Counted from the first letter of the stretch, positions 11,247-64,000 are shown. The stretch: DNA of 64,000 nucleotides from a virus (IMGVR_UViG_3300043172_000799:92944-156943), one strand, 5' to 3'. Program-made: numbers and translations. Notes: generated from the letters alone by a model not told the origin.

Positions 11247-11531
11247 CTATTCCTCCACGATATCATACGTCTTCTTAAATATATCTAACTTAATTGGGTA
11301 TATCTCACCCTCAATACCAGTTATTAGCATATCCTTTGGAGTCATCCTTTCAGTACCTTCAAGTGTATCAAAAAGATAACATTCATCATTTTCATGAGTT
11401 ATATAATGCCCATTGTAGTTAAATGACCATGGCAAACCTCCAACAATATTATCAGAGATATTTTTCCCATACTCCACGAATTCATTAAATGTAATAGCTT
11501 CTATAACGACAGATTTCTTTCTGTATTTCAT
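11247..11531 (-). CDS. hypothetical protein
   Basis: 94-aa ORF, 4-nt overlap with the recA-like gene. Confidence 0.3.
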   Translation of the reverse strand: MKYRKKSVVIEAITFNEFVEYGKNISDNIVGGLPWSFNYNGHYITHENDECYLFDTLEGTERMTPKDMLITGIEGEIYPIKLDIFKKTYDIVEE

Positions 11532-12793: not shown

Positions 12794-13329
12794 ATCCTAG
12801 TTTCTCCTCTGCTCTTTTTATACGAAAATTCATTATGAAGTTCTTCCTCAGCGTTTTGTCTTGCTTTTATAGCATCTTCTTTATGTGCAAATAACCCTAG
12901 CTCTTTTCTTTTATCATCTTTGTTTATATACGCTCTCCATTTCTTAGTCAATTTATGCCAAGATACACCTACATGTTTAGAAGTATTATTAGATTGAATT
13001 TCTTTATTCATTTGGTTTTGACCATTGGTTGCAGAACGTAAATTAATCTTTCTATTATTAAGCCCATCACCGTCTCTATGCTCTGGAATAAACCCTTTCT
13101 CTACAGTGTGAATTACTTGGTGCATTTTTATACGAGTTTTATTAAAGTTCCCCTTAGTACGGGCTACAGCGTAAAATAACTTCTTTGAGGTGGTGGGCAC
13201 TCTATACCAACAGTAGTCTTTTACTTTAAAATAATCTTCTTTGTCAATGATTGTAAATCCATGGTCTTTATTGAAGAAGAATATTTTAATATAGCCATCA
13301 TAGACTTCTATGTTATTTACTTTAGACAT
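12781..13329 (-). CDS. HNH-AP2 homing endonuclease paralogue (short form lacking the N-terminal Cys domain)
   Basis: 'YIKIFFFNKDHGFTIIDKEDYFKVKDYCWY', HNH 'EHRDGDGLNNRKINLRSATNGQNQMN', AP2 'VGVSWHKLTKKWRAYINKDDKRKELGLF'. Confidence 0.75.
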   Translation of the reverse strand: MSKVNNIEVYDGYIKIFFFNKDHGFTIIDKEDYFKVKDYCWYRVPTTSKKLFYAVARTKGNFNKTRIKMHQVIHTVEKGFIPEHRDGDGLNNRKINLRSATNGQNQMNKEIQSNNTSKHVGVSWHKLTKKWRAYINKDDKRKELGLFAHKEDAIKARQNAEEELHNEFSYKKSRGETRICQQ

Positions 13330-23628: not shown

Positions 23629-23927
23629 TGGATTTTCTCCATTAAAGTCATAACTGTACCATCCTCTAGGAAGATTAGTCCTACAATAGTTTTAGCAGTT
23701 ATGCGTTCTAGTTCTCTAATCTCTTGAATTATATCAGATTTTAATACTATACAATTTTCGGCTGACCCCGAATATCCATTTTTCCAAAAAAAATCACCAG
23801 AAACTTCAGCATTCTCTACACTTGTGTTCATGATATCGGAGGGAGCTTTAACCTCCTCTTCGATCACTTCTTCTACCGAAGGAGGTTGTCTTCCAAGTTC
23901 CTTACTCGTTTTATATTTATCAACCAT
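23625..23927 (-). CDS. hypothetical protein
   Basis: 100-aa ORF. Confidence 0.3.
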   Translation of the reverse strand: MVDKYKTSKELGRQPPSVEEVIEEEVKAPSDIMNTSVENAEVSGDFFWKNGYSGSAENCIVLKSDIIQEIRELERITAKTIVGLIFLEDGTVMTLMEKIQ

Positions 23928-25206
23928 TATCTTTTATCCAATCCTCTATTGTGATTTTCTCATATTCTTCCTTAGATATTTCCCGTTTTACAAATACTTT
24001 TTTTGCACGTGGAGCACTATCATAAAAATCAAATATCATATCGTCATATTTCACTTCCAATTCCAAAATAACAGAATTAGCGTCATTACTATGAGGAAGC
24101 ACAGAAGGTGCAATCTCACCATATATCCCAGAAGAATATCTACCATAGTACCCTCTCATGACTGCCTCTATCTCTTCTCCTACTACATACTCAAAATCAG
24201 ATTGCCAATAGGAGATTAGCTTAGAGCCTTTCTTCTTTACATTTTTATACATCTTAAAGGAATCTAATTTTTGAATAGGGTGGATAATATCTTCTTCATC
24301 ATCCTTTGCTACGTACACCATTTTCATGTAATTACTACCAGCAATAATGAATGCCATTTCTCCAATTTTGTATACCTTAGAAGGGGTAGGGCACAAATCT
24401 TTATATATTTTGATTTGATAATCTTCCTCATCTATTGCACTACTATCAACCATATTTGCACCATCATTTCTACTACTACCAAACAAAATGACATCATTCT
24501 CTGGATACCCTGCTATACACAAATACTTTCCTTCCTTAAATGGGAGTATTTTTATGGTAGAAATAAAATCCATAACGTTAACTTCATTGAACTCACTATA
24601 TCCTTTCTTTTCCCATTCTTCTTTCAAATTGATACCATACATTCCTTGGATATGGTTTTCTACATCCTCTATACATGTAAGATTTAGAAAAGATGTTTTA
24701 AGAGCAATCTTTATCATTTCTCTCCTAGAGATGTGAAACCCCTTCTCTTTGTATTTATGAATTCTAAGAAGAGATCCTATGGGGTACATATTAGTACCGG
24801 AATAAATTAACTTCCTGCCTATTATATCTCTATGAAATCTAGGATCAAATACAAACTCCTCCGTTTCAAAATCAAATCCTGCCATACAAATGGTAAAGTC
24901 AAATGATTCAAATATTTCCTCCAGAGAATTGAAGTATTTAAATAAGATAAGATTACGAGGGATGGTAAACCCTACAATTATCATAGAGCGCTTTGTGTAA
25001 GATATTACTGCTTGTCCCTCATTGCATATGTAAAAATTGAAGGCATCTCCCTTTGATCTAAAGTAAAGATCAAAATCTTTTATTTCTGTGCCGGAGAAGA
25101 GAGATAGTATTGCTCCTCCGGCTAAGAATGCTTTCATTTTTTTTAACTCGTTGTATGTTACTTCTCCCATTAAAGAGATTAGTTTTTCTTTTTCATATTT
25201 GTACAT
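23920..25206 (-). CDS. CCA-adding enzyme / poly(A) polymerase-family nucleotidyltransferase-like protein
   Basis: 'GGAILSLFSGTEIKDFDL' matches the class II CCA-enzyme head motif 'GGAVRDLLLGRPPKDIDL' residue for residue in spacing. 'DFTICMAGFD' matches 'RRDFTINA'. 'DPRFHRDIIGRKLIYSG' matches 'DPfgGl.DL..k.iR.vG'. The RR of motif B is replaced by 'ES'. Confidence 0.55.
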   Translation of the reverse strand: MYKYEKEKLISLMGEVTYNELKKMKAFLAGGAILSLFSGTEIKDFDLYFRSKGDAFNFYICNEGQAVISYTKRSMIIVGFTIPRNLILFKYFNSLEEIFESFDFTICMAGFDFETEEFVFDPRFHRDIIGRKLIYSGTNMYPIGSLLRIHKYKEKGFHISRREMIKIALKTSFLNLTCIEDVENHIQGMYGINLKEEWEKKGYSEFNEVNVMDFISTIKILPFKEGKYLCIAGYPENDVILFGSSRNDGANMVDSSAIDEEDYQIKIYKDLCPTPSKVYKIGEMAFIIAGSNYMKMVYVAKDDEEDIIHPIQKLDSFKMYKNVKKKGSKLISYWQSDFEYVVGEEIEAVMRGYYGRYSSGIYGEIAPSVLPHSNDANSVILELEVKYDDMIFDFYDSAPRAKKVFVKREISKEEYEKITIEDWIKDNG

Positions 25207-27932: not shown

Positions 27933-28721
27933 TTATTCTCCTTTTCCTCTACTGTTATCAAAAGAGTGTTTGTTGAAGTACCTCTCTTCTGCTTCTTTTC
28001 TAACTTTAATAGCATCTTTTTTATATATAAAGGAACCTAAGTGTTTCCGTCCGGCACCCATACCTATACGAGCTATCCACCTCTTTTGTTTGTCATTCCA
28101 TACAACACCGGCAATTCCAGAGGTGTTATTTGACATCAAGGCTCTGTTCATATTGTTTTGGCTTCTTGTAGTAGGTCTTAGATTCCTGTTAATATTATTT
28201 AGACCATTTCCATCTTTATGATCAGGCATGTGTCCTTTCTCTGATGGGCATAGTATTTGATGCATCATAATAGTCTTCTTACCATAAAACTTTTGTTGAT
28301 CTATTGGGATGTTAGCAACAGCATAATATGTATTTGCCTTTGCTACTCTAAACCAGCAGATGCTTTTCACTTTATCATAATTTTCTTTATCTATAATAGC
28401 GTAATCATCACAGTTGAAGAAATAAATTTTAATGTAAGCACCACAATCTTCTGCAATGTTTATTTTGTGATTCTTAATGTGAGTTTTTCGTACAGCTTCC
28501 TTTTGTAGACAGCCACAACTCTTAGTTTTATTTCCTACCAAGTCTGCTCTTCTAATAGATCTTATACTCCCACTGGGACATGAGCATTTACATGAGTACT
28601 TCCAATCAGAAGGGCAGATATTTGCCTCGCCATTAATCTTACTATCCTCATCCACCTCAATAATGGTAAGTCTCCCAAATTCCATTCCTGCTTCTAAGTA
28701 CTTAGGATACTTTGCCATCAA
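27933..28721 (-). CDS. free-standing HNH-AP2 homing endonuclease
   Basis: 'CKCSCPSGS...SCGC'. HNH 'DHKDGNGLNNINRNLRPTTRSQNNMN'. AP2 'SGIAGVVWNDKQKRWIARIGMGAGRKHLGSF'. Confidence 0.8.
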   Translation of the reverse strand: MMAKYPKYLEAGMEFGRLTIIEVDEDSKINGEANICPSDWKYSCKCSCPSGSIRSIRRADLVGNKTKSCGCLQKEAVRKTHIKNHKINIAEDCGAYIKIYFFNCDDYAIIDKENYDKVKSICWFRVAKANTYYAVANIPIDQQKFYGKKTIMMHQILCPSEKGHMPDHKDGNGLNNINRNLRPTTRSQNNMNRALMSNNTSGIAGVVWNDKQKRWIARIGMGAGRKHLGSFIYKKDAIKVRKEAEERYFNKHSFDNSRGKGE

Positions 28722-29830
28722 ATAGCCTTTATCAACTTCTCTGAGGGGAAGTCCTCATAGTATTCCGCTACAGTCCCCACACTTCCATCTAGCCATTTAA
28801 AAGCAAGATCTTTATATGGTGTACCTACAACTAAGGTAGCAAATCTTTTTCTATTTGCTAATTCCTTATCAGAAAAGCTCTTAAGATATTTCAAGAATCC
28901 TTCTGCTTCTGCCATGTACAGATCATACTTATCCTTTACAGATGCCAAAACATTTTTGTATTCAGGAAAGTAAGTAAGCACCTCAGCCATCTCATTCTTT
29001 CTTATGATATCCAAAGCTCTCTTTTCTGTAAAGATCCCCTCTCCCCTCATATGGTGCAAATGAACGTATACTTCACCTTTAATCTTAATTCGATTGAAAT
29101 ATTTATCACAAACTACAATACCTTCTTTATCAGTCCCAAAATCTTGTACCAGATCTATACAATCCTCAAGATTGGCTAGATCATATTCTTGCAGACTACT
29201 CACTATAGCACTTATGGCAAGATGGTTCTTCTCTTCCCCTGTTTTATTGTCCTTGGAAGAAAGATAGAATATCTTTGGAGAATCATATCGTACCACCACT
29301 CTGTTAGAGGGAGTACACAATTCAAAGATATGCGTTTCATCTTCAAGATCATTAAGGAAGCTGAAATTCTGTACATTGTAATTAACCATTAAGGTATTGA
29401 TGAACAGTGCTCCAAAACTGTCAATAGGAATTCCTTCATCATTGAAAGTAAGTTCCTGAAGCCCTGCATTAAATCCATTTATTGTCCCATTGGTAGCAAT
29501 GAACCATCCACCATTTATACAGTATAGTTTTATGATGCTTCCATCTTCCTTAGAAGTAGCTCGTGCAGATTTCCAATCAATTTCTGGAACGTAACTCTCA
29601 CCATAATTTCCAAACTTATGAAAGGGATGACATACTATTTCCCAAGTACCTTCCCGAAGGATAATTCCTCTACATTCTCGCACTAATGGCTTGTGAAAAT
29701 CTGATTTAATTTGGTTATACTTAAATATGACTAATCCGTTATCTTTCTTAACCTTTATAGCATAATCTCTTTCTAAAAGCTCCTCATAGTTCTCTGGATG
29801 CTCTTTACAAAACTCTTGTATTTTTAACAT
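28718..29830 (-). CDS. rnlA: RNA ligase 1 (T4 RnlA-like)
   Basis: 'VRECRGIILRE' matches T4 Rnl1 'ALECRGIMFEM'. Motif I 'TSKEDGSIIKLY' matches 'TKEDGSLVS'. Confidence 0.8.
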   Translation of the reverse strand: MLKIQEFCKEHPENYEELLERDYAIKVKKDNGLVIFKYNQIKSDFHKPLVRECRGIILREGTWEIVCHPFHKFGNYGESYVPEIDWKSARATSKEDGSIIKLYCINGGWFIATNGTINGFNAGLQELTFNDEGIPIDSFGALFINTLMVNYNVQNFSFLNDLEDETHIFELCTPSNRVVVRYDSPKIFYLSSKDNKTGEEKNHLAISAIVSSLQEYDLANLEDCIDLVQDFGTDKEGIVVCDKYFNRIKIKGEVYVHLHHMRGEGIFTEKRALDIIRKNEMAEVLTYFPEYKNVLASVKDKYDLYMAEAEGFLKYLKSFSDKELANRKRFATLVVGTPYKDLAFKWLDGSVGTVAEYYEDFPSEKLIKAI

Positions 29831-30132: not shown

Positions 30133-31014
30133 TTAAAATTCAGTGTGGTAAATTCTATCATCAATATTAAATACGGTAAGTCCCATACTTTTCCATTCTC
30201 TGACCATAATCGGACGATCATCAAATACACCACACACAACAAAGCCCTTTCTGGCAACATGCTGGTCAAATAATTCCCGTTTAATAATAGCATCTTTCCT
30301 ACTGTCACCTTTGGCTCGCATGTATAATCCCTCGTATGGGATGATATAATCATCTAACCACTTTTCAGTAAGTTCTCGGCAAGAGCTATCTCTCCCAGAC
30401 ATAATGTAGATCGTATTTCCGGTTCTATGTAGTAGTCTCAAAATTAGAGCTACATCTACCCTTAACTTATCTTCTCCTACCCGATCCCACATAAAAGGTT
30501 TTCTACCATTCATTTGAGCAAGGGAGCCATCCAAATCAAAAATATAAAGTTGATTTAAATTTCCATCTCTGGGGTCTGCCTGATGCTTTTTGTTTTCCCT
30601 AACATCAAAATGTCTCATCCAAGTATTTTGAATGATACTAGCACCAAGACTATTCTCACGCTTAAGATCGTTCTCAATACATTTTTCCAAAGGCACATCT
30701 AGAAAACTTTTAATTTCAAATTCCACAGCCGGATAGTACCCTTTAATTACTGCCTTTCTCTCTTTGATTTTTTCCATACTTAAATTCATGGAATCAATAA
30801 TTGCATTCTTCCCACTATCCAAAATAGATAGAATCATTTCCTTCTCAACCTTGGAGATGAACTTCTCATTTTTGGCATTAAAATGAATATTATCAAACAT
30901 CAGCCGGAGATCGTCCCTGCATACTCGTTTCCAATTAGGGTCTTGAGCACGTTTCTTAGCATACGTACTCTTCCCTGATCCTTGAATACCACGCATAAAT
31001 AATACTTTACTCAC
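30133..31014 (-). CDS. pnk: polynucleotide 5'-kinase / 3'-phosphatase (T4 Pnk-like)
   Basis: N-terminal P-loop 'FMRGIQGSGKSTYAKK'. C-terminal HAD phosphatase 'LYIFDLDGSLAQMNGR...IMSGRDS...KGDSRKDAIIKRELF...VFDDRP' is collinear with T4 Pnk 'VIFDVDGTLAKMNGR...VVSGRES...QGDTRKDDVVKEEIF...AIDDRT'. Confidence 0.85.
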   Translation of the reverse strand: MSKVLFMRGIQGSGKSTYAKKRAQDPNWKRVCRDDLRLMFDNIHFNAKNEKFISKVEKEMILSILDSGKNAIIDSMNLSMEKIKERKAVIKGYYPAVEFEIKSFLDVPLEKCIENDLKRENSLGASIIQNTWMRHFDVRENKKHQADPRDGNLNQLYIFDLDGSLAQMNGRKPFMWDRVGEDKLRVDVALILRLLHRTGNTIYIMSGRDSSCRELTEKWLDDYIIPYEGLYMRAKGDSRKDAIIKRELFDQHVARKGFVVCGVFDDRPIMVREWKSMGLTVFNIDDRIYHTEF

Positions 31015-33371: not shown

Positions 33372-33941
33372 TTATTTTCCATAAGCCAGCCTTGGATACA
33401 GCATTCCTATCTTTGACTGTAAACCGGCTATGGTTGAATCATTGTAAATAACACTGTCAGGAACGATACTGTCTATTTCCATTTCAGAGGAATGTGTATC
33501 GATAGAGATAAGTCCCTCTCGTTCCAGTTTAATAATATGTCCTCCCATAGATTTAATGGTGTTGGCTTCATTTAAGAATCTAACATCAGATATAACTACA
33601 TTTGGCTTCTCTGTAAAAGAATCATACCAGTACTGAAATCTTTTTACCCAGATATCGGACCCTATCAATTCCTTGAATAATGGTAATATCTCTTGTAGCC
33701 TTTGCCTGAATAATTCTGTGCCCATAGCTTGTTGTGCCTGTCTGGGAGAGATATTCCATCTAGGGTCAATTGTCTCTTTATATTTTCCATTAACCCATTC
33801 ATCATCCCAAAGGAAGATTTCTGCCACTGATGTTTTAATTGGATCTGCAAATTTGTATCTGGTAAATCCAAATTGATCTATCAAATAATCTGCTACCTCA
33901 TCTTTCCCTGATCTTTTTTTTCCTACTATTCCTAGTATCAT
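33372..33941 (-). CDS. deoxynucleoside monophosphate kinase (T4 gp1-like)
   Basis: 'MILGIVGKKRSGKDEVADYL...YKFADPIKTSVAEIF' matches T4 gp1 'LIFLSGVKRSGKDTTADFI...YQLAGPIKDALAYAW'. Confidence 0.75.
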   Translation of the reverse strand: MILGIVGKKRSGKDEVADYLIDQFGFTRYKFADPIKTSVAEIFLWDDEWVNGKYKETIDPRWNISPRQAQQAMGTELFRQRLQEILPLFKELIGSDIWVKRFQYWYDSFTEKPNVVISDVRFLNEANTIKSMGGHIIKLEREGLISIDTHSSEMEIDSIVPDSVIYNDSTIAGLQSKIGMLYPRLAYGK

Positions 33942-34933
33942 TCCATAACCACCTTATCCAAATAATTCATAAACCACATTCGTGCTTTCACACTCATGGC
34001 TTTCCCTACATCTTTAGGCTCCAAACCATTCTCATTTAATACATCCATTTCTTCCATAATAATATCTCTGTTAACCCACTTAAGGAAATCACTCATCATC
34101 TGGATTCTGGGTGTTTCAGATGCAGAAGTGAAAACCTGTTCAATAGCCTGATTCAATCTGTTCTCTGTGACTGCATATTCCACAAACTCATTGACTGAAT
34201 TCATCTTTTCAATGTCCACAGGAGCTACTGTCTTAACTTTAGATGCCGAGTGCTTCTCCCCCTTAGTTTTAAAAATATGATCTCTGTGTCCATTCTCATC
34301 ATAGTGTGACCACACAATCCCTTCCCCAATACCATGTGCATCAAAATGCTTTGAGAAAGGACATTCCTCCTCCACTTCATCCACTAACTTAATCATTTCT
34401 GCCTGTGCAATCTGTGAATAGTTAAAATCAATCTCCAGTTCATATGTGAGGAAATCAAAGATATTATACACATCAAGATCCTCATTCATAAAATCAGGCT
34501 GTGTGTAGAAATGATCTGCTTCATCTTCAATTCCTGTATATTTGATTGCAAAGACCACAAATCGTTTAGAGAGATGATTTAAAGCAACTCCTGTCTGGAT
34601 ATTTCCACCACACCATTCTCCGAAGATAGTGGTGATATATCCATCTTTATGTAGATAATCAAATATTTTATACCAAAAATCTTTTCTATTGCTGGCAAAG
34701 AAAGCAAATCCTGCATTATCTTTCTCTGGAGTAATTATATTCTTTCTACTCTGATACCAAATTCCATCTGCCGGTGTATGGCATATCCCTGCATTCGTTC
34801 CGTGGAGCTTAATTGCCCCTTCAAAAGTTAGCGTAGGGTGTGTAGCTCTAACCTCTCCTTCTGGCACATGGCATACATTTCTAATGATGTGCCGGTACTG
34901 TCCTATTTTTGTAAAACTAATAAATTTTTTCAT
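33938..34933 (-). CDS. RNA ligase 2 (T4 Rnl2-like)
   Basis: Motif I 'AIKLHGTNAGI' matches Rnl2 'EKIHGTNFSL'. 'IFGEWCGGNIQ' matches 'VFGEFAGPGIQ'. Motif V 'IFKTKGEKH'. 331 aa, similar in length to T4 Rnl2. Confidence 0.8.
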   Translation of the reverse strand: MKKFISFTKIGQYRHIIRNVCHVPEGEVRATHPTLTFEGAIKLHGTNAGICHTPADGIWYQSRKNIITPEKDNAGFAFFASNRKDFWYKIFDYLHKDGYITTIFGEWCGGNIQTGVALNHLSKRFVVFAIKYTGIEDEADHFYTQPDFMNEDLDVYNIFDFLTYELEIDFNYSQIAQAEMIKLVDEVEEECPFSKHFDAHGIGEGIVWSHYDENGHRDHIFKTKGEKHSASKVKTVAPVDIEKMNSVNEFVEYAVTENRLNQAIEQVFTSASETPRIQMMSDFLKWVNRDIIMEEMDVLNENGLEPKDVGKAMSVKARMWFMNYLDKVVME

Positions 34934-36448: not shown

Positions 36449-37174
36449 TTACTCCTCCATATCACAATTAACCAAATTATCTATAACATTTGGTTCTTTT
36501 GAAAATATAGGTGCTTCATTTAAAAACTCCCATCCATTCTCAGTCTTTACACAGAAATTTCCATTCTTCCATTTATCTTTGTAGTCTTCCCATGTAATTT
36601 GGTGCTCATCCCACAACATCTGTTTGATGTCATTAGTATTCTTTTTATGCATTTTACTATGAGAGAACACAGATTGTCCTGCAAGCTGAATGGAATTCCT
36701 TTTCCAATCCATACTTCTCCACACAAAATAATTATTCACTTCTTCACGGGGAATGTTGAATACTCTGCTATCGAAATAAGCAGTCTTTGAGGAATTATAT
36801 ATACTGCTGTAGTAATGATTAAACTCCGCAGTAGCAATAGAAGCAGAGACACTACACATCTTCTGTATACCATAATCAAACCATGCATCCGTTGTAAGTT
36901 TGTCATAATCTGTGATTAGAATGGAAATTTCATCTGATTGCATATATGCACATTTAGCTCCCTGAATTTCTTCACAAAGCTTGATGGTGGTTGCTCTCAT
37001 CATAGCATTTAAATTTTCATCGAACGGTCTATCCATACCTTTTGTAATAGAATGAAAGCACTTCCCATCTAAGCGACAGATAACTGGTGTTCTCCTAGTT
37101 AAATACGTTCTAGCTCTCTTTTCATAATTATCTTTCATTCTATCTGCAATTTGTGTTTTATCCATCGACCTCAA
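36449..37174 (-). CDS. Thg1-like protein (tRNA-His guanylyltransferase family, 3'-5' nucleotide addition)
   Basis: 'RTPVICRLDGKCFHSITKGMDRPFDENLNAMMRATTIKL...AYMQSDEISILI' is collinear with Thg1 'IVVRIDGKKFHEF...KPNDENALKLMNACA...AFGESDEYSFIL'. Confidence 0.75.
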   Translation of the reverse strand: MRSMDKTQIADRMKDNYEKRARTYLTRRTPVICRLDGKCFHSITKGMDRPFDENLNAMMRATTIKLCEEIQGAKCAYMQSDEISILITDYDKLTTDAWFDYGIQKMCSVSASIATAEFNHYYSSIYNSSKTAYFDSRVFNIPREEVNNYFVWRSMDWKRNSIQLAGQSVFSHSKMHKKNTNDIKQMLWDEHQITWEDYKDKWKNGNFCVKTENGWEFLNEAPIFSKEPNVIDNLVNCDMEE

Positions 37175-42974: not shown

Positions 42975-43358
42975 CTACAGTAATTTATACTCACTAGTCA
43001 TATCCTTTACAAGAATACTTCTATAGGGACCAATGGCTATGCATGTCACAGTTGGTATTCCATGAAACTCTGTCTTGCCACAGTCAGTTATGATGGCATA
43101 TGGTATATCTAATCTCTTGGCTCTTTCTGCTAAAGAGTGGATATCAGACTCGGAATCACATCCCAATACTATTTTGGTAAAGATACCATTAATCCACTCC
43201 TTCTGCTCAGGAGTGACTGATATTATTAAGCAGTCATCTTCTAGCCAATTACCCTGATCTAAAATTACCTTCATGGAAGCATGTGCTACCTGAGATGCTA
43301 TTTTACCTTTTCTCATTTTAAGATCTTTTCTTACCACTATGGTCTGTTGTGTTAGCAT
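42975..43358 (-). CDS. peptidyl-tRNA hydrolase, PTH2 family
   Basis: 'QTIVVRKDLKMRKGKIASQVAHAS...GIFTKIVLGCDSESDIHSLAERAKRLDIPYAIITDCGKTEFHGIPTVTCIAIGP' is collinear with PTH2 '[25 protein letters not shown]...KVVLKV.dee.L..l...A...gLp..li.DAGrTqi..gs.TVLgiGP'. Confidence 0.85.
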   Translation of the reverse strand: MLTQQTIVVRKDLKMRKGKIASQVAHASMKVILDQGNWLEDDCLIISVTPEQKEWINGIFTKIVLGCDSESDIHSLAERAKRLDIPYAIITDCGKTEFHGIPTVTCIAIGPYRSILVKDMTSEYKLL

Positions 43359-44164: not shown

Positions 44165-46960
44165 TTATGCACTTTCTTCATAGTCCCATTCATATCCGTA
44201 ACTCCTTATCAATTCTGCCTCTTTCTTTTCATCATCCCAATCTTTATCAGCATAAATATGATCATACCAATTCCCATTATCATAGTATTCTACATCCGCT
44301 TTCATGGTATGTATAACCCATCTGTGTTTCTTCATTAGATATGTAGTCATATAATAAACAACTTTCTCACGCAAACCCTTCCCTATCCATTCAGATAGAT
44401 CTTCTGGTGTATCAAAGTATATAGCATCATGAATCTGGGCTACTATTTTTGTCTTTAACTTGTTTTTATCTATATATTCTTGTATTTTAGTTTGTGCCTG
44501 AAGAATAAGATGAAAAGCAGGTCCTTGTATCACGTAATTGTTACACTGATTTCTATTCATAACTGTAGTTGAATAGAAGCCTGTTGCTAATTTTGTTCTC
44601 ATATTTTTTACATAATTTTTCCAGTTATCTTTTCTCCATTGTCCAAACTCTCCATAATTATCCTCCCAGTACCAATCACACACAGTTTTTATATGCTCTG
44701 TAAATTTCTTTTCTGTATCTATTTTAGACTCTTTGAAATATTGTTTGTGGTATTCCTGTAGATGTTTATTGTACACTGTTGGACCTATACTGAGATATAT
44801 ATCTCCAAATTGTAATGAAAAGGACATACCATTTTTACCTATATACCTAAGATCTTTCCACATATGAGCTTCCGTGTCATTTTTAGCATCATAATTTCCC
44901 ATTTCTTTTTTAATCTCTATCATGTCTTTAGATACTTGAGACAATTCCCCCATAAACAATTTTTCAGCTAAGCCAAGATGCATATCTAATCCTTCCTCTA
45001 ATTGTTTGAGCATGGTTTTATCATGATGTACAGAACACCCTACACCCACTTCTAAACTACTTGCATCTGCTCCTATGATTCTGTTTCCTTCTGAAGACAT
45101 TAAGAAAGACTTTGACATCTCTGCTGCAAATGGATCATGTTGACTTTGATTCTGCCAGTTTGGATTTTGAGAAGATCCTCTATAACTTTTTGGTATATTC
45201 AAAGAGAACATAGGGTATATGTGCCCTTCTACCATTTCTCTTCTAACACCTTTCAAATCTTGTGTTAATTTTATCAATTTAGCAAGCTCCAAGTACATTT
45301 TCAAAAACTCAGATAACGGAGCTATGTCTTTTAGCTCTTTAGCTTCTGTTGAATATTGATCCCCTCCTGTTTTTTTTGTTTTAGGTAATCTCAAAATATT
45401 AAAAAGAAAATCCGACAATTGTTTGCCAGAACTATAGTTGAACTCTGTATCTCTATTCTCATACCACTTATCAATTTCTGGACAATTTTTAATATTGTAT
45501 TGCAATTTGACTATTTTCTTTTCTAATATCATTTCATTTTTTATCAATCTTTCTTCATCTATTCTAAACCCATTCTCCATCATTCTACAAAAAGATAACA
45601 TACCATCATGAAATAAGTGAAAACCCTTCATCAAATGTGGATCACCTTCTATTTGTGGCCTCTGCCATTCATAAAGATGATATGTAAAATGGCTATCTTT
45701 TGCACAATATAAACACATATCCTTTAAATCCATAAGATGCATTGTATTGAAGCCATTTGCACCATATAATGCTTTCTCTTCTTTTGTAGATTTAATATAA
45801 CTATCTGCCATACTATCATATCCTAGAATTCCAAATCTCATATATGTCTGTACTTTTAAACCTGTGATATTAGATCTATTATCCAAAATGTGAGAAACTA
45901 GCATTGTGTCCCATACAAAGTTTTCAGATCTGTATCCAAATATGGAAATACTAGCTTGATACTCATATGCCATATTGTGTGATATTTTTCCAACCCTATT
46001 AGATTGAAGCAATCTCTTTAGATTATCCATAAATGGTTTGTTGTCATAGAATATAGGAAAACCATAAGATACAATACCATTACTAAAGGACACACAATAT
46101 ATTTTATGTCCTTTTTTTTGTAATTTTATACCACTTGCCTCATAGTCAAAAGATACTAAACTTTCCTTTTGCATACATTTCAGAACATGAGTAGCATCCT
46201 CCTCATGCATTACGGTACAACACTCTGACTCATATGTATCTTTTCTAAATTCTTTTTTTGATAATATATTTTTTAAATATTTTATAAAGAATTTTTCCTT
46301 TAATATAAAATCATCATACTCACATAATTTTTCATTCTTCCATAAAACAATTTTATCATCAGAACTTTTCCATTTCCCCCATTTTTTCAAGGAGTCTCTT
46401 CTTTTTTTAAGAGGCTGGAGTACAAAATTAATGTCATAATTTGGCATAACTAGCTTATGCAATTCTTGATCTGGTATTATAGTTCCATAGAACTTTTCTG
46501 TAGGTTTAAGGCTCATCCTTCCATTACATCTATCCCCTAAAAGAATCTCTAAAGGAAGTTCTCCTAGTGTTATTATTTTTTTAGGATTTAATTGCTTGAT
46601 TGTTTTATGCAATTTGTATTTGCAACTATTTATAATCTGAGTACTAGGTCCTCCCCAGTCCTCAGAAAAACATCTCACAGAAGGCACATACCAGCAATCT
46701 CTTTCTAAGTCAATATTAATTTTCTGTAAAGCATGTTTTAAATATTTCCCTTGTATATTACTTAAAAGTTTTCCAGATTGGTCTTCCCTTTCACTTGGAG
46801 GTGCTCCCACAATTAAGATGGATTTATCTCCGTTACCTACCACTCCTAGTTTTGGATTTTGGCAGTCCATATAAGCTTTACAACTTTCACAGCCTCCAAT
46901 TTTCTTTTTATTAACTTTCTTTCTAACTATTTCTTTTTCTATTTCAAAGAATCCTCGCAT
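44165..46960 (-). CDS. family A DNA polymerase with N-terminal family-4 UDG-like domain
   Basis: N-terminus 'GCESCKAYMDC...ILIVGAPPSEREDQSGKLL...SVRCF...IITLGELPLEIL' fits the UDG family 4 layout (GCxxC...GEAPGxxED..G.pF...N.vkCrPP). Motif A-like 'GADASSLEVGVGCSVHHD'. Motif B-like 'RYIGKNGMSFSLQFG'. Motif C 'VAQIHDAIYFD'. Confidence 0.8.
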   Translation of the reverse strand: MRGFFEIEKEIVRKKVNKKKIGGCESCKAYMDCQNPKLGVVGNGDKSILIVGAPPSEREDQSGKLLSNIQGKYLKHALQKINIDLERDCWYVPSVRCFSEDWGGPSTQIINSCKYKLHKTIKQLNPKKIITLGELPLEILLGDRCNGRMSLKPTEKFYGTIIPDQELHKLVMPNYDINFVLQPLKKRRDSLKKWGKWKSSDDKIVLWKNEKLCEYDDFILKEKFFIKYLKNILSKKEFRKDTYESECCTVMHEEDATHVLKCMQKESLVSFDYEASGIKLQKKGHKIYCVSFSNGIVSYGFPIFYDNKPFMDNLKRLLQSNRVGKISHNMAYEYQASISIFGYRSENFVWDTMLVSHILDNRSNITGLKVQTYMRFGILGYDSMADSYIKSTKEEKALYGANGFNTMHLMDLKDMCLYCAKDSHFTYHLYEWQRPQIEGDPHLMKGFHLFHDGMLSFCRMMENGFRIDEERLIKNEMILEKKIVKLQYNIKNCPEIDKWYENRDTEFNYSSGKQLSDFLFNILRLPKTKKTGGDQYSTEAKELKDIAPLSEFLKMYLELAKLIKLTQDLKGVRREMVEGHIYPMFSLNIPKSYRGSSQNPNWQNQSQHDPFAAEMSKSFLMSSEGNRIIGADASSLEVGVGCSVHHDKTMLKQLEEGLDMHLGLAEKLFMGELSQVSKDMIEIKKEMGNYDAKNDTEAHMWKDLRYIGKNGMSFSLQFGDIYLSIGPTVYNKHLQEYHKQYFKESKIDTEKKFTEHIKTVCDWYWEDNYGEFGQWRKDNWKNYVKNMRTKLATGFYSTTVMNRNQCNNYVIQGPAFHLILQAQTKIQEYIDKNKLKTKIVAQIHDAIYFDTPEDLSEWIGKGLREKVVYYMTTYLMKKHRWVIHTMKADVEYYDNGNWYDHIYADKDWDDEKKEAELIRSYGYEWDYEESA

Positions 46961-47118: not shown

Positions 47119-47598
47119 TTATTCCTCCCTCATTTCATCCCAACTATCCTGTCCCTTCTTATGTCTCATATTCAAATATCTATGCATTATCTTAGTATTA
47201 ATAAACTTAAGATTCTGTGTAGTCAATGGTTCTTTCCATAAAACAGGGGCATTTTTAACAGTAGTAAGACCGTATTTATTACATGTGATCAATCCTGCAT
47301 ACTCTGGGACATCTTCTACAGAAATATCAAATCCATAACACACATAGTAAAAGTGCTTTGGCTTTATACTCATTTTATCACTGCGGTCAAGAAATAATTG
47401 ATGCCTTTTCTTTTTGAAATCTGCCTTAAAATCTGCCTTGCTACATTTTATTTCATAAAAATATGCCCTATTAGTAGATGTAAGATAAAGGGCATCAACT
47501 TCCGACCCACCATGTTCATCTGTATGTACATTTGGAATGACTGTCTTAAAATTATGATGACAATACAGCATGTACTGTATTGCACTTTCCTTATTCAT
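47119..47598 (-). CDS. putative PD-(D/E)xK nuclease
   Basis: 'GSEVDALYLTSTNRAYFYEIKCS' gives a D-x17-E-x-K arrangement. Confidence 0.4.
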   Translation of the reverse strand: MNKESAIQYMLYCHHNFKTVIPNVHTDEHGGSEVDALYLTSTNRAYFYEIKCSKADFKADFKKKRHQLFLDRSDKMSIKPKHFYYVCYGFDISVEDVPEYAGLITCNKYGLTTVKNAPVLWKEPLTTQNLKFINTKIMHRYLNMRHKKGQDSWDEMREE

Positions 47599-48875
47599 GC
47601 CATTCTTTCTCCATCATAGATGTACTTCAAAGTAGGAAATCTCAAACTGATTCCACCCTTTTCATTAGTTGTCTCCTCAAAATATTGTACAGTTATTGTC
47701 TTCCCAAGTATTTTACGAGGATCAGCATAGAATGCTTTCCTCTGATCGAGTGAGAATCCAGAGCCTACTTTTACATCAAATCCTTTATGGGTAATATGGA
47801 CTGCTGTGAGAGTTTCAATCTCTTTACGCTCACCATCTTCCACAACCTGATACATTCCCTTTTCAATTGAGTTAACTACGTATTCAGCATCAAAAAACTT
47901 CTTTACTTTGAGAAGATCGTTACTTCTTTTCCCTTTGTAGATAGTATCTCTTCGTAGAATTAATCCTTCCCATCCATTATCGGTGGCTTTCTTCTGCATC
48001 TCAGCAAAGGTATCTTCATTCATTTTTACTTGTTCTAGTACATCTAAATGTAAGTTCTGGTCAGCAAAATACTCATTTAATTTTTCTAATCGTTTTGACA
48101 ATATGCGTTTAGAAGTTTTGCTTTCAAACTCTTCAATGGTGAGCATATCAAAAATCTTATATTTGGGATTTGGGATAGTAAAATCTTTTTTCTTATACAC
48201 TTTCATGATTGCAGTGAAGTCTTCTTTTCCCTCTGCATCTACAATACACAATTCCCCATCTAATACAAAATTAGATTTATAGTTCAAGTTTAAGATAGCA
48301 TTTTTAATTTTATCTAATGTAAGGAACTCTTTTCCTTTTCTGGAATAGAATCTAACGTCATTTCCATTTTTAATACAAATACAACGTAGACCATCAAGCT
48401 TATGTGAGCCATAGTATTCTTCTTTATTAATCTTTCCTGATACCTTGTCATAGGAATTTGCCAGTGCTACATCAAATTTTGGGATGAGATTCTTAAATAC
48501 CTTATTGATATTGGAAGTTCCCATTCCAATCATTAAATCTTTGTCAATTATCTTAAGGATAATGTCTTCGTATTCTGGGTAATATGATATAAAGCCTTTT
48601 ACGGATGACACAGCCTTGTGACCTGTGATATTACCATTAGCTAAAGCATCCAATAATACAAATATATCACTGTAACTCTTGATAGCTGGTACATCTACTA
48701 ATTTACTAATTCTGGCAGAGGTTATTCCATACATCTTAAACTCATTATAGATGTAATGCAGTATTTGCTTACACTCAGGATGTTCTGCTAATGTTTTCAT
48801 TTTATCATTTGACCCATTTGTTTTGTTTAGTTCTTCAATTAATATTCTTGTTTGTTGTAATATTTCTTTACTCAC
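47595..48875 (-). CDS. ATP-dependent DNA ligase
   Basis: Motif I 'SHKLDGLRCICIK' (KxDGxR). Motif V-like 'EGLILRRDTIYKGKRSNDLLKVKKF'. Confidence 0.75.
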   Translation of the reverse strand: MSKEILQQTRILIEELNKTNGSNDKMKTLAEHPECKQILHYIYNEFKMYGITSARISKLVDVPAIKSYSDIFVLLDALANGNITGHKAVSSVKGFISYYPEYEDIILKIIDKDLMIGMGTSNINKVFKNLIPKFDVALANSYDKVSGKINKEEYYGSHKLDGLRCICIKNGNDVRFYSRKGKEFLTLDKIKNAILNLNYKSNFVLDGELCIVDAEGKEDFTAIMKVYKKKDFTIPNPKYKIFDMLTIEEFESKTSKRILSKRLEKLNEYFADQNLHLDVLEQVKMNEDTFAEMQKKATDNGWEGLILRRDTIYKGKRSNDLLKVKKFFDAEYVVNSIEKGMYQVVEDGERKEIETLTAVHITHKGFDVKVGSGFSLDQRKAFYADPRKILGKTITVQYFEETTNEKGGISLRFPTLKYIYDGERMA

Positions 48876-59418: not shown

Positions 59419-60960
59419 CTATTTCATTTCAATTTGATATATTTTATTCTTATATTCTAACAATACTTTCTCGCCATAGGCATCAGTGCATAGAATCCCA
59501 TCGAGTGGTATTTTTACATCTCTTAATATTTTATACTGATCCTTTTTAACATGTGTAATAATAAGATCCTCATCAGGGTTTAATAAGATAATCATTCCAT
59601 TTTTCAGAACAGTATAATTACATTCCGCAGGGGCATCTACTTCTACAATATATGATTCATTAAAATCTCTGGAGAATCCATTGGTATTCTGTTTAAAGAT
59701 TCCCACAAAATATTTCTTATCTTTTTCCATAGAGACTACTAAAACATTATTTCTGTATGAACAGTCAGTTATTTTGTACCCATCCAATTTCCCATCTAAA
59801 TTTGTATGAACTAGTGATGTATCATTGGCGACAATAAAATGATTTTTTTTAAAAATTGGATAATAAGCTGCACCATCATACAGTTTTGTATTTAGTGGGA
59901 CATTCATATTAAACGTGGCAGCCATCACATTATATGAAAAGGTGTTTAGCTTCAACATTCCTGATGAAAGCTCCACAAAGGAATCCTCAGAGAGTATAGA
60001 TAGGTTTTTGTGCCCTATAATATCTGCCAACTCGGTGTACCCAACCTTATCTTCTTTCATCTTAAAGAACTTCTTCATTCTGATATCTTTTACTTCGGTT
60101 ATCTTGAGTTTATCAGAGCCTTTCATTGAGATCTCCTTAACTTTTGGAGGCACATTCTGAAACATATTCATAGGAGGAAGAGATCTATTTCCCTTTACAA
60201 ATGTATCCTCATACCAAGTGAGTAACCCTTTTGGGATTATACTAAAATCCTCTACCGAAGCAGGAAGGTTTGTTTTTGAATCAAATACCGAAACATTATT
60301 TTTCATTCTAAGAAGAACATCTTTCTTTGTGTAGTCAGGATGCTTACCTTTAAATGGGTGTATGTTAGTCAGTAGCTGAAAAGTAATAATAGCATAAGAA
60401 TACCAATCAGTTATTTCATTGAATATCTTTTTATCAATTGCCTTTGGATCTGTAATCATGGGGGAAAAAGCTGTAGCTTTATGTCCCTTAGTTTGGTATG
60501 AGTCAATATCAATAAAGTATGGCATATCCAACTTAGCTTTTTCAAATAAGAAATTATTTTCATTTCCATCTACAATAACACAATTGTTCTTATGAATATA
60601 CTCCGTAGTTGTGCGAAGAGTTTCAATCAATTTCAGAATTGAATCTGTTGTAATGTTATTTCTAGTTTTATAACTTTTGGTGAAAAGCTTTGTTAGACTT
60701 TCAGTATTGTGTAGATACTTCATGGAATACCCTACAAAAGTATTATTCTGATCATACAGCACATCTTTAGGACTGACTATATTTGGCTTATCTAAAGTCT
60801 GGAGAATATTTAATTTGCTAATGAAATTATGTGATCTTTCTTTCTGAAATATCTTGTATATGATTCCATCTTTTAGATATATGTCTGCTTCTCCACCGGA
60901 AGTAAGAAAATGAGAATCTGCAATTTTAACCTTATGTCCATTTCTACTAGATATTGTCAT
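59419..60960 (-). CDS. Hanks-type (eukaryotic-like) Ser/Thr protein kinase with about 260-aa C-terminal extension
   Basis: Gly loop 'TSGGEADIYL'. Beta3 Lys 'IYKIFQK'. Catalytic loop 'VIVDGNENNFLF' (D...N). 'FIDIDSY' (DFG-like). 'DWYSYAIITFQLLTNIHPF' matches subdomain IX 'DvWSlGvilyeLltG.pPF'. Confidence 0.6.
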   Translation of the reverse strand: MTISSRNGHKVKIADSHFLTSGGEADIYLKDGIIYKIFQKERSHNFISKLNILQTLDKPNIVSPKDVLYDQNNTFVGYSMKYLHNTESLTKLFTKSYKTRNNITTDSILKLIETLRTTTEYIHKNNCVIVDGNENNFLFEKAKLDMPYFIDIDSYQTKGHKATAFSPMITDPKAIDKKIFNEITDWYSYAIITFQLLTNIHPFKGKHPDYTKKDVLLRMKNNVSVFDSKTNLPASVEDFSIIPKGLLTWYEDTFVKGNRSLPPMNMFQNVPPKVKEISMKGSDKLKITEVKDIRMKKFFKMKEDKVGYTELADIIGHKNLSILSEDSFVELSSGMLKLNTFSYNVMAATFNMNVPLNTKLYDGAAYYPIFKKNHFIVANDTSLVHTNLDGKLDGYKITDCSYRNNVLVVSMEKDKKYFVGIFKQNTNGFSRDFNESYIVEVDAPAECNYTVLKNGMIILLNPDEDLIITHVKKDQYKILRDVKIPLDGILCTDAYGEKVLLEYKNKIYQIEMK

Positions 60961-61714
60961 TTTTCCATACTCCTATAGAGAAATCATCATGGGGAAATAT
61001 ATTTTCTTTAGTGAACTGTTTTATCATGAAGCTCATACGTCTACTTAGGAATTCTCCCGAACCCTTAAACCCAGTTATATGTCTAAGTACTATTTGAGGG
61101 TCAATAACTTTTCCATTTTTTCTGAAATCAAAAATTCCATCGGATGCTATTCCAACATATTCTAGATTTTCTTTTCGAAAAAACTTGTTTGGAAAATTAC
61201 ATTCCTGAAATTCCTCTACCTCTTCTCCTTCAATGTTAAACCACTTCGCAATGTATTTTTGATCCTTTGTAGATTCATCGTACAATTCCTTCCGTTTATT
61301 GTCTATCAGATAAGACGGATACATAGGAGTGTTCTCTGAGTAAGAGTATTCAATAAAGGTAGGAAACTCATCTTCTTTTTTCTTGAAGAATAATAGTCCA
61401 TCACCAATTATACTAACTCGAATATCATTCTTTTCTTCTTTTAATACTAAGCATGTAGCATCAAGATAACTTGTACCTTTTTTCTCTAATGTAGCAGAAC
61501 ATATATGAGCTAAAGCTTCCCAGTTAGGACTATCCATTCTCTTTCTCGATTGCAAATATTTATATCCTACTTCAGAGTATAATAATGCTCCTAGATGACT
61601 ATTCTTAGAGGAGCTACACCCATCTGCTAGAATTATCATATTATTGTCTATATTAGACACGTAATCTTCACAGCGTTCTTTTTGAAATGCTGTTTTCTGA
61701 TATATATCTATCAT
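60947..61714 (-). CDS. PP2C-family Ser/Thr phosphatase
   Basis: 'MIILADGCSSS' matches 'lfaVaDGhGG'. 'VSIIGDGLLFF' matches 'vanvGDSRa'. 'VGIASDGIFDF' matches 'lvlaSDGlwd'. C-terminal 'DDFSIGVW' matches 'DNiTvivv'. Confidence 0.7.
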   Translation of the reverse strand: MIDIYQKTAFQKERCEDYVSNIDNNMIILADGCSSSKNSHLGALLYSEVGYKYLQSRKRMDSPNWEALAHICSATLEKKGTSYLDATCLVLKEEKNDIRVSIIGDGLLFFKKKEDEFPTFIEYSYSENTPMYPSYLIDNKRKELYDESTKDQKYIAKWFNIEGEEVEEFQECNFPNKFFRKENLEYVGIASDGIFDFRKNGKVIDPQIVLRHITGFKGSGEFLSRRMSFMIKQFTKENIFPHDDFSIGVWKNDNI

Positions 61715-62187: not shown

Positions 62188-62583
62188 TTAGTTATCACTC
62201 GCTTCAATGCTAACTTCATCTGCTATAGACATAACTGGTTTATGAATCTTGACTAATTCGTAATTAACTATACTACTTATAATTTTGATCCAAGTTTCAA
62301 AAGAAAAATCACCATCTGGTAAATCACTTCCTCTTGTCCAAACTTCTCCAGCTCTAGGAGTTCTACAACTAGTTGTACAACCAAGATAGCCTTTATCATC
62401 CTCTTTTCTATTTAGGTCTGGTAAGCTAGCAGATATACTATATTTGTTTGTTTTAGTAAATAAGTATACTCGTACTCTTGTGTTTTCTTCATCAATAGTT
62501 GAACAATCTTCCATTTTATATTTAAAATGACTTCCAATACCTAACCATTCTTCTAACTGTGTTTTCATCTCATTTAGTTCCAT
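62188..62583 (-). CDS. hypothetical protein
   Basis: 131-aa ORF. Confidence 0.35.
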   Translation of the reverse strand: MELNEMKTQLEEWLGIGSHFKYKMEDCSTIDEENTRVRVYLFTKTNKYSISASLPDLNRKEDDKGYLGCTTSCRTPRAGEVWTRGSDLPDGDFSFETWIKIISSIVNYELVKIHKPVMSIADEVSIEASDN

Positions 62584-62626: not shown

Positions 62627-63793
62627 CTAATCTTTAATTTTAAAAACCTGTTTAACGTATTTTACATAATCAGCATCTTCGCACATAAGCTTACCTTTTG
62701 AATCACTAAGTTTAGCTACAGGTCTTCCATTACATTTTACAATTTTCATAACTATTTGTAAAGGAGTAATATTTTCAAAATCATTTGTTAGATGAGTCCC
62801 AATTCCAAATGATAGTTTAGCTTGATCTTTAAATGCATAGTATAAGTCGGCACATTTCTGCATGGTCAAACTATCTGAGAATATTAATGTTTTAGTTTTT
62901 GGATCTATACCTAATTTCTTATAATGAGCTATAGCTTTATCAGCCCATACTTCAGGAGTTCCACTATCATGACGTAAGCCATCAAAGAGTTTAGCAAAGT
63001 ATAAATCAAAATCCACAAGGAATGCATCCATTCCATATGTATCACTAAGTGCTATACCTAAATCTCCTCTATATTCATCTGCCCATTTTTGTAACATATA
63101 GCTTTGAGATTTAACAAGACGTATATCATCCTGTCCAGCTCCTACCATAATATATTCATGAGCCATTGTTCCAATAGGTTTCAGATTATACAGTTTTGCA
63201 AAGTATACATTAGAAGTTCCTTGAAAATTAGGAAGCTTAGAAAATGTAGATATAACAAATTCCTGCCATTCTCTCCCATATCTTCTACGTGTACCAAAAT
63301 CAGCAAATGGAATACCATGCTCTTTTGCATACGCATATTTCTCTTCTAATCGTGTGTACCCACTATTTACTTCTTCTGTACCCATGAGACATGAATGAAA
63401 ACCAAAATAAACTTCATTTACTATTGCTAAAACAGGCACTTCAAACATCACAGTTAGATACCATGGACCTTCTACTTCTATCTGGAGTTCCCAATTGCTG
63501 TCAAGCCAAATTTTAATATGATTTCTATTAGGCTGGTATAGTCTGAGAAAGTCAATAAAATCCTGTTTAAAGAAAGAGAAGGAGGACAGGTATCCTAACT
63601 CACCTTCCTTGAATTTCAGTGTACAGTAATGATCCACTTCTTTGTTGATGTGCTCTAGCATAGCCTCAGTCCAATCTGCTTTGTTCCTGCATTTGAACTT
63701 ATACTTTACATGAGTTGTGTTAAACTGATGTAAGGCACTTTGAAACATAGTAAATTTATATAAGTCAGTATCTAGTAAGCTGTTTATTATCAT
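62627..63793 (-). CDS. pncB: nicotinate phosphoribosyltransferase (PncB)
   Basis: Collinear with E. coli PncB: 'LLDTDLYKFTM', 'GPWYLTVMFEVPVLAIVNE', 'DFGTRRRYGREWQE', 'GTSNVYFAKLYNLKPIGTMAHEY', 'LGIALSDTYGMDAFL', 'GLRHDSGTPEVWADKAIAHYKKLGIDPKTKTLIFSDSL', 'LSFGIGTHLT', 'KIVKCNGRPVAKLSDSKGK'. Confidence 0.9.
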   Translation of the reverse strand: MIINSLLDTDLYKFTMFQSALHQFNTTHVKYKFKCRNKADWTEAMLEHINKEVDHYCTLKFKEGELGYLSSFSFFKQDFIDFLRLYQPNRNHIKIWLDSNWELQIEVEGPWYLTVMFEVPVLAIVNEVYFGFHSCLMGTEEVNSGYTRLEEKYAYAKEHGIPFADFGTRRRYGREWQEFVISTFSKLPNFQGTSNVYFAKLYNLKPIGTMAHEYIMVGAGQDDIRLVKSQSYMLQKWADEYRGDLGIALSDTYGMDAFLVDFDLYFAKLFDGLRHDSGTPEVWADKAIAHYKKLGIDPKTKTLIFSDSLTMQKCADLYYAFKDQAKLSFGIGTHLTNDFENITPLQIVMKIVKCNGRPVAKLSDSKGKLMCEDADYVKYVKQVFKIKD

Positions 63794-63839
63794 ATAGTCC
63801 TCCTAATTATCTTTATAGTGCAACACTATTTATTTTTTG

Positions 63840-64000
63840 TCAAGGTAATCTTCTCTCAAATCTACTATTAATAAATTTTATATTTGCAGTAACCATGTGT
63901 TTATGTTTATTGGCAATATGCCTATTCCAGATGAAATGAAATAATGTTGCCTCATTCCCAGTGTACCATAAATCTATCCACTCAGTGCCTATGGTATCAT
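63840..64000 (-). CDS. 3' end of a minus-strand gene running off the window end
   Basis: Open frame '...DTIGTEWIDLWYTGNEATLFHFIWNRHIANKHKHMVTANIKFINSRFERRLP*'. Its stop overlaps the -35 TTGACA upstream of pncB. Confidence 0.3.
   Translation of the reverse strand, partial: DTIGTEWIDLWYTGNEATLFHFIWNRHIANKHKHMVTANIKFINSRFERRLP

Follow-up and report, generated by a model that had tools for sequence, protein, structure and literature searches.

Phage routes to NAD and the locus described here

Depletion of nicotinamide adenine dinucleotide (NAD) is a common end point of bacterial immunity. Three pathways by which phages rebuild the NAD pool have been shown experimentally to act as counter-defence, and the deamidated route is used by none of them. 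Two were described together, namely NAD reconstitution pathway 1 (NARP1; Adps and Namat), which re-ligates ADP-ribose pyrophosphate (ADPR-PP) to nicotinamide, and NARP2 (Nampt and Nmnat) (Osterman et al., bioRxiv 10.1101/2024.02.11.579819). The third, NARP3 (PnuC and NadR), imports nicotinamide riboside (PMC13464706). PncA, PncB and NadE are mentioned in neither of these two papers, and our literature search found no paper describing a fourth phage NAD reconstitution pathway. A 2024 survey of metagenomic jumbo phages did report complete Preiss-Handler gene sets, including pncB-nadD-nadE (e.g. in Kuafu_71), and mentioned phage pncA (Microbiome 2024, PMC11662467); such sets in large phages are thus known from computation and their function is predicted. 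Here we describe a stretch of viral DNA of 64,000 nucleotides (IMGVR_UViG_3300043172_000799:92944-156943, hereafter the window), at one end of which lies pncB, the gene for nicotinate phosphoribosyltransferase, clustered with nadE and with a pncA-like gene. The best explanation, to which we would give a probability of roughly 60%, is that a functional PncB works in a phage gene cluster which returns nicotinamide to NAD by way of the host NadD, with a probable benefit against NAD depletion.

The region that we inspected amounts to ~92 kb: the window, 19 kb upstream of it (10 kb on contig L001 and a further 9 kb on contig L014) and ~10 kb beyond the window start. The neighbouring sequence was reached through protein look-ups, exact-match scans of IMG/VR and of metagenomes for the complete contig having given no match. 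As in the NAD-carrying jumbo phages, PncB and NadE are encoded in a cluster and the predicted NAD route is deamidated, the evidence being computational only in both cases (PMC11662467). Since the jumbo-phage sets have already been published, the locus is a further case of a computationally described kind. It differs from them in features of its own: a sub-jumbo genome of ~168 kb, a long-form nicotinamidase in the cluster, so that the starting point is nicotinamide, and no nadD or other adenylyltransferase gene in the part that could be read. The likeness to bacterial operons is also close. In the Pseudomonas aeruginosa salvage operon pncA-pncB1-nadE (PA4918-4920) and in the Lachnospiraceae arrangement nadM-pncA-pncB-nadE the same three enzymes are clustered, and the adenylyltransferase is often encoded elsewhere (PMC7318152). 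Unlike these operons, the present cluster lies in the replication-module arm of a phage, has the order pncA..nadE-pncB with two unrelated open reading frames (ORFs) inserted, encodes a PncA of ~265 amino acids (aa), and shows no detectable NrtR-type regulator or riboswitch.

Among the experimentally shown pathways the nearest is NARP2 of Vibrio phage KVP40, which likewise makes NAD from nicotinamide and phosphoribosyl pyrophosphate (PRPP); its type II phosphoribosyltransferase shares the superfamily PF04095 with PncB. However, NARP2 proceeds in two steps, from nicotinamide to nicotinamide mononucleotide (NMN) and on to NAD, with an adenylyltransferase of its own, whereas the transferase of the present locus is classed as a PncB equivalog rather than Nampt, the predicted route is deamidated and has four steps, and neither an Nmnat nor a Nudix homologue was found in the window, L014 or a third contig, L006. 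With NARP1 and NARP3 the locus would share the outcome, restoration of the NAD pool driven by the phage, but the chemistry and the proteins are unrelated: no Prs-family domain, by which NARP1 would be recognised, occurs among the precomputed Pfam matches of the inspected genes, and phmmer searches with the PnuC and NadR-like proteins of another phage contig (L011) find nothing in the window, L014 or L006.

PncB and its upstream partners

The genes that carry the argument, together with the ribosome-binding site of pncB, are the following.

62627..63793, minus strand: pncB, nicotinate phosphoribosyltransferase, 388 aa; ATG-to-stop ORF with PF17767 and PF04095, TIGR01514 and PDB 1yir matches
63799..63804, minus strand: AGGAGG ribosome-binding site 5 nt 5' of the pncB ATG, read from the sequence
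63840..64000, minus strand: 3' end of nadE (last 52 codons and stop), NAD synthetase of 279 aa; full gene at L001:9115-9954, identical to L014:18081-18920
L001:7015-7806, outside the window, same strand as the cluster: pncA-like gene, predicted long-form nicotinamidase of 263 aa, by profile, conserved residues and predicted structure

The pncB product matches the two-domain architecture of the enzyme, an N-terminal domain followed by the catalytic barrel, over its full length, with NAPRTase_N (PF17767) at residues 7-126 (E 4e-32) and NAPRTase (PF04095) at residues 163-386 (E 6e-72). It scores 439.2 bits against the NCBIfam equivalog TIGR01514 (cut-off 269.55) and 525.1 bits against PRK05321 (cut-off 379), stays under the cut-off of each of the remaining NAPRTase-type NCBIfam models, and reaches E 3e-21 only with the PHROG Nampt family. 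Solved PncB structures align with it end to end, 1yir at E 8e-104 (query residues 2-387) and 3os4 at E 2e-89; we take these to be the Pseudomonas and the Yersinia enzyme, respectively. All columns that are invariant in a MAFFT alignment of 124 homologues are kept in the phage protein, including His212 (in GTMAHE), R169-R171 (in DFGTRRR), D276/S277, G330/G332/T333 and K361/S363. The GT-AHE motif aligns with 1yir and 3os4, and His212 is presumably the equivalent of the phospho-histidine His219 of Salmonella PncB. We read His212 as the phospho-histidine, and its conservation suggests that the reaction is coupled to ATP. The ORF is thus a genuine PncB, an annotation as secure as sequence analysis allows, and its predicted reaction is the conversion of nicotinate and PRPP to nicotinate mononucleotide (NaMN). 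An earlier model-made reading of the window (the first-pass annotation) had placed PncB at exactly these coordinates, and the domain, equivalog and structure matches support it far beyond chance. That reading had also held that nothing could realistically refute the assignment, which proved true in practice but was worded too strongly.

The partial gene that ends the window was taken in the first-pass annotation for a possible pathway partner of pncB, either an adenylyltransferase or a synthetase. Its coordinates were exact, and the second guess was the right one. The stop-free translation of 63840..63998 (minus strand) corresponds to the C-terminal 52 residues of a 279-aa protein, the full gene of which was recovered from the identical contigs, and the gap between nadE and pncB is 46 nt. 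NadE matches PF02540 (E 5e-50) and the TIGR00552 nadE model (156 bits, cut-off 63.65), and contains the PP-loop SGGADS; against the full-length equivalog PRK13980 it scores 182, below the cut-off of 255. Its best PDB matches are single-domain chains that their depositors named NH3-dependent NAD synthetase, the top one being 2e18 (E 6e-31), and Pfam finds no CN_hydrolase glutaminase domain in the full protein. By these matches, the upstream partner is a predicted single-domain NadE of the ammonia type. The advice to look beyond the window for NadD, NadE, NMNAT or Nudix genes therefore paid off in part: NadE was found there, but no adenylyltransferase or Nudix gene in the inspected ~92 kb.

The short NadE group to which this protein belongs includes 3fiu (E 8e-23), which we assume to be the NMN synthetase of Francisella. 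It is therefore worth asking whether the phage enzyme might act one step earlier, amidating NaMN to NMN, so that a host adenylyltransferase of the NadR or NadM kind would finish the synthesis and host NadD would be bypassed. The Francisella enzyme offers a described precedent (PMC3376133), and related clusters carry NadM-type adenylyltransferases, not NadD. Nevertheless, 2e18, 3p52 and 1xng, all named NAD synthetase by their depositors, outscore 3fiu, which suggests nicotinate adenine dinucleotide (NaAD) rather than NaMN as the substrate. Moreover, a characterised archaeal member of the short group is an NAD synthetase devoid of NMN synthetase activity (PMC3376133), and the phages with the closest PncB (contigs L011 and L012) encode NadE of the conventional kind, with two domains and dependent on glutamine. 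We consider such a branch quite improbable for this phage.

The third enzyme is encoded ~2.2 kb further upstream of the nadE fragment and is more divergent. A single-sequence Pfam search gives no match for the PncA-like protein, and the NCBIfam PncA model hits it weakly (E 3e-9; 37 against a cut-off of 174). It belongs, however, to a family of ~265-aa proteins that several sources name nicotinamidase. A profile built from 23 family members finds only nicotinamidases among its top PDB matches, led by yeast Pnc1 (2h0r, E 1e-17). Residues D9, K154, C204, D52, H54 and H120 are invariant in the 23 sequences and align with Pnc1 D8, K122, C167, D51, H53 and H94, of which we take the first three to be the catalytic triad and the last three the zinc ligands. 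The confident AlphaFold model (predicted local distance difference test score, pLDDT, 93.5) points in the same direction, the best 26 Foldseek matches in the PDB all being nicotinamidases. The protein thus combines an isochorismatase-like fold with the Cys-Lys-Asp triad and the Asp-His-His metal site of nicotinamidases. Given the family profile, the conserved residues and the matches of the model, we call it a divergent long-form nicotinamidase, a prediction from sequence and modelled structure.

A proposed deamidating route through host NadD

Taken together, the three proteins suggest the following scheme. The phage PncA would deamidate nicotinamide to nicotinate; PncB would join nicotinate and PRPP into NaMN, with ATP coupling presumably mediated by phospho-His212; an adenylyltransferase, most likely the host NadD, would convert NaMN to NaAD; and the phage NadE would turn NaAD into NAD with ammonia and ATP. 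The phage itself encodes three of the four enzymes of the route from nicotinamide to NAD (steps 1, 2 and 4). In other words, it would add capacity to deamidating salvage (Preiss-Handler plus nicotinamidase), rebuilding NAD from the nicotinamide that is freed by NAD cleavage. The likely benefit is that NAD would be kept available during infection, including in hosts with NAD-depleting defences of the SIR2/TIR type.

The first-pass annotation had credited a phage salvage enzyme with rebuilding the NAD pool. This needs to be qualified, because PncB takes nicotinate whereas SIR2/TIR NADases release nicotinamide, and PncB alone would therefore not recycle the product of the defence. It is the PncA-like nicotinamidase upstream that would close the gap.

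The remaining step has no candidate on the phage side. No PF01467-type adenylyltransferase, Nudix, PnuC or NadR is present in the precomputed Pfam matches of the genes called in ~92 kb of the ~168-kb genome, ~76 kb, mostly the presumed structural arm, lying outside this view. Similarly, the window, L014 and L006 gave no match in phmmer searches with the NadM-Nudix, NMNAT-like, PnuC and NadR-like proteins of related phage loci, or in a scan for the HxGH motif. Since no adenylyltransferase was found, the phage set is incomplete and probably relies on host NadD. NadD is essential in most bacteria, and the simplest reading is that step 3 is supplied by it.

Several considerations weigh against the proposed scheme. 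In addition to the missing adenylyltransferase, flux through the route would be limited by host NadD, and, compared with NARP1 or NARP2, the route takes more ATP and is longer in steps. Between pncA and nadE-pncB lie a strong hairpin and two ORFs unrelated to the pathway, so that all three genes are at most possibly co-regulated. Finally, pncA-pncB-nadE, with or without nadM, is a normal bacterial salvage operon. This last point favours a different view of the cluster, according to which it is a general metabolic booster that supplies NAD for the host metabolism exploited while a large phage genome is propagated (redox reactions, the host NAD-dependent ligase) and has no specific link to an immune NADase. 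There is more to be said for it: NadE alone occurs in cyanophages and in phage G, a jumbo phage up-regulates the host pncA-pncB1-nadE genes in a host that is not known to be depleting NAD (PMC7318152), and the 2024 jumbo-phage survey reads such genes as NAD supply for propagation (PMC11662467). On the other hand, the inspected regions showed no phage enzyme that consumes NAD, and the phage DNA ligase is of the ATP-dependent type (PF01068), which means that the NAD genes do not feed a phage NAD-dependent ligase. That a nicotinamidase is included suggests, specifically, that the product of NAD cleavage is recycled, and all phage NAD pathways tested by experiment to date are counter-defence. A counter-defence role is plausible by this analogy. 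On balance we find a purely general supply function somewhat unlikely, and it should be kept in mind that the two roles are not mutually exclusive.

If the deamidating scheme through host NadD is taken one step further, it is tempting to speculate that pncA-nadE-pncB constitutes a fourth phage NAD reconstitution pathway, one that needs nicotinamide, PRPP, ATP and ammonia in addition to host NadD. We put this forward tentatively, as a possibility with the odds somewhat against it. Because it would need only these inputs, such a pathway would counter every nicotinamide-releasing NADase, also in defences that render ADP-ribose (ADPR) useless to NARP1. If so, the reliance on host NadD would be a specific vulnerability of the phage. 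Should the cluster prove active, the range of known phage counter-measures would be widened by a pathway that depends on one essential host enzyme. Although the idea itself is not new, the locus is a clean and compact example of the deamidated route in a non-jumbo phage and a good candidate for its first experimental test as counter-defence; the genes of the cluster are small enough for synthesis and for direct testing on strains with SIR2 or TIR defences.

The carrier genome

The carrier of pncB is a tailed, uncultured phage, the gene lying in its replication and nucleotide-metabolism arm. Identical sequence was assembled independently in three samples, as a 102-kb Logan contig, a 168,378-bp contig of the Joint Genome Institute (JGI 3300037245, Ga0392328_0000030) that starts inside the window, and shorter JGI contigs, and P0001 is recorded also on a contig of 168,384 bp. 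The genome size is therefore ~168 kb, below the 200-kb jumbo threshold. All substantial ORFs of the window lie on the minus strand and are densely packed, and both the GC content (~0.32-0.38) and the strand skew are uniform across the window, including through pncB. The gene content is that of phage replication and nucleotide metabolism, with a Dda-like helicase, RecA, thymidylate synthase, ribonucleotide reductase, RNA ligases, PNKP-like and Gad2-family proteins, and the two enzymes listed below. About 8 kb past the window start, on the opposite strand, a tail protein of 1406 aa is encoded, in which GpJ and Phage-tail_3 domains are recognised. The dense one-strand coding, the phage DNA polymerase and helicase families and the nearby tail gene all agree with the initial view that this PncB belongs to a phage. 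The phage is far from those on record: megablast gave no match for the locus among 50,697 phage records, and no known phage polymerase shares more than ~22% identity with its DNA polymerase.

44165-46960, minus strand: family A DNA polymerase with an N-terminal uracil-DNA glycosylase domain (PF03167, PF01612 and PF00476)
47595-48875, minus strand: phage DNA ligase of the ATP-dependent type (PF01068)

Recurrence in other phages and origin of the genes

PncB together with NadE, usually with PncA as well, is also found in five further contigs of viral or phage-like character and in several phage records from metagenomes. The five contigs are listed here.

L008, 140 kb, GC 47%: pncA-pncB-nadE
L009, 168 kb, GC 32%: distant syntenic relative with pncA-like gene, homologue of the 242-aa ORF that precedes nadE, nadE and pncB, then the same pair of PP2C and kinase genes, at 23-44% identity
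L010, 42 kb, GC 28%: pncA-pncB-nadE between two cytidylyltransferase-like genes, one with the NMNAT motif GRFSPIHKGH
L011, phage contig with T4 rIIB and Phage_VG64 domains: PncB 69% identical; PncA, two-domain NadE, NadM-Nudix, PnuC, NadR-like and NADAR-domain protein
L012, 292-kb phage contig: PncB 67% identical; PncA, two-domain NadE and NadM-Nudix nearby

In IMG/VR, the three contigs that carry a PncB relative (L008, L009 and L010) all have nadE beside pncB. The two genes also adjoin each other in two gut contigs, MT839920 and MT835470, and in the 735-kb metagenomic phage records LR756501 and LR756503, and the long-form PncA is encoded in one gut phage contig as well as in three large phage records from metagenomes (462-595 kb). 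PHROGs already contains 'NAD synthetase' families. Genuine phage PncB is nonetheless rare. In the public phage collection 14 records are matched, four of which are bacterial DNA (the MD-2021a contigs, the host flank of Mcat17 and one very weak match). Among the best 'phage' matches, we rejected the 'Acinetobacter phage MD-2021a' records CAKLQH020000008.1 and CAKLQF020000012.1 as bacterial chromosome contigs in which serB, dtd, psd and phoBR surround pncB, and Moraxella phage Mcat17 (KR093641.1) as a record whose pncB lies in host DNA past attR; both inflate the apparent number of phage PncB proteins. Among the matches, cultured phages are represented solely by two jumbo phages, Atu_ph07 and Phosso (32% identity). 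Around pncB of Atu_ph07 the annotation gives an ADP-ribose pyrophosphatase and a Ser/Thr phosphatase, and no nadE.

Two of the related contigs deserve separate mention. L011 (ENA ERZ23495071, a 46-kb contig) carries an unusually complete NAD island at L011:1-17179, in which elements of a NARP3-like and of the deamidated route stand side by side and a NADAR-domain gene lies ~4.5 kb downstream of pncB. In L009, pncB is directly followed by a gene (L009:7347-8978) whose 543-aa product has a DFP domain (PF04127, DNA/pantothenate metabolism flavoprotein) at its N-terminus, which hints at other cofactor metabolism beside the NAD genes there.

The closest PncB proteins overall are those of L011 and L012, followed by cellular ones at 66% from two metagenome-assembled genomes (MAGs) of Spirochaetales, Oceanispirochaeta and Spirochaeta UBA5339; together with the present protein they form a group at 66-73% mutual identity. 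The gene has thus clearly been exchanged with bacteria. On the Oceanispirochaeta contig pncB stands alone. The type of NadE differs among phages with close PncB, a short ammonia-type enzyme here versus two-domain glutamine-type enzymes in L011 and L012, so that the phage modules are mosaic in make-up. In many bacteria, among them Lachnospiraceae and Treponema, pncA, pncB and nadE normally lie together, often joined by a NadM-like gene. It follows that clustering indicates genes working together as a pathway and is not by itself a phage-specific invention; the notion that clustering proves phage-specific selection was dropped, the same clustering being standard in bacterial genomes.

Such exchange with bacteria, and the public 'phage' PncB records that are really bacterial DNA, could also mean that pncB is a passenger, either recently captured host DNA with no phage role or part of a bacterial or chimeric contig. 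Yet the gene order is the same on the independent assemblies from three samples, and the 168,384-bp record of P0001 agrees with them; GC content and strand bias run uniformly through pncB, with phage genes on both sides; and all family-invariant residues are intact. In addition, the pncA-like gene, the 242-aa ORF, nadE and pncB are all kept in L009 at 23-44% identity, which implies long retention. We therefore regard a passenger or an artefact as very improbable.

Cluster layout and transcription signals

On their common strand the genes follow one another, from 5' to 3', as pncA-like, a 148-aa ORF, a 242-aa von Willebrand factor A (vWA)-like ORF, nadE and, last, pncB. Two further ORFs frame the nadE-pncB pair.

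L001:8273-9001, directly upstream of nadE: 242-aa ORF, weakly vWA-like (DUF2201 match at E 8e-4, under the Pfam cut-off)
62188..62583, minus strand: 131-aa ORF, 43 nt downstream of pncB

The homologue of the 242-aa protein in L009 (L009:4193-4969; 23% identity, E 2e-7) is likewise directly upstream of nadE. The 131-aa ORF has no Pfam, NCBIfam or PHROG match; no terminator-like site separates it from pncB, with which it is probably co-transcribed. The cluster as a whole may be co-transcribed. Sigma-70-like sites matching 11 of 12 positions lie in the intergenic gaps just upstream of the pncA-like gene and of the 132-aa gene that precedes it; the counts from the promoter and terminator scans are at the level of shuffled controls. 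Between the 242-aa gene and nadE there is a perfect 12-bp hairpin without a U-tract (L014:17977-18005, ~75 nt 5' of the nadE start; z-score -2.3 for the 115-nt region). It could serve in processing or stability, or else be an atypical terminator that parts pncA from nadE-pncB. No known riboswitch or other RNA family, including the NAD riboswitch, was detected upstream of the NAD genes at E up to 1.

Three small ORFs follow pncB, and beyond them, ~0.9 kb downstream of it, lie genes for a Ser/Thr protein kinase of 513 aa (59419-60960, minus strand) and a PP2C-type phosphatase of 255 aa (60947-61714, minus strand), which overlap by 14 nt. Downstream of pncB in L009 there is likewise a kinase homologue (33% identity), together with an ORF whose N-terminus looks PP2C-like by eye (L009:10215-10889 and 11500-13155).

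Other genes of the phage

Elsewhere in the window, immediately downstream of the thymidylate synthase gene, a 428-aa protein (23920-25206, minus strand) has a precomputed match to PF26128, Gad2, which we take to be an anti-Gabija protein family. The phage also carries a set of genes of the RNA-repair type, namely a T4 Rnl1-like RNA ligase, a PNKP-like kinase/phosphatase, a second RNA ligase, a Thg1-like protein and a PTH2 peptidyl-tRNA hydrolase (28718-29830, 30133-31014, 33938-34933, 36449-37174 and 42975-43358, all on the minus strand). This set may represent a tRNA-repair counter-measure against anticodon nucleases.

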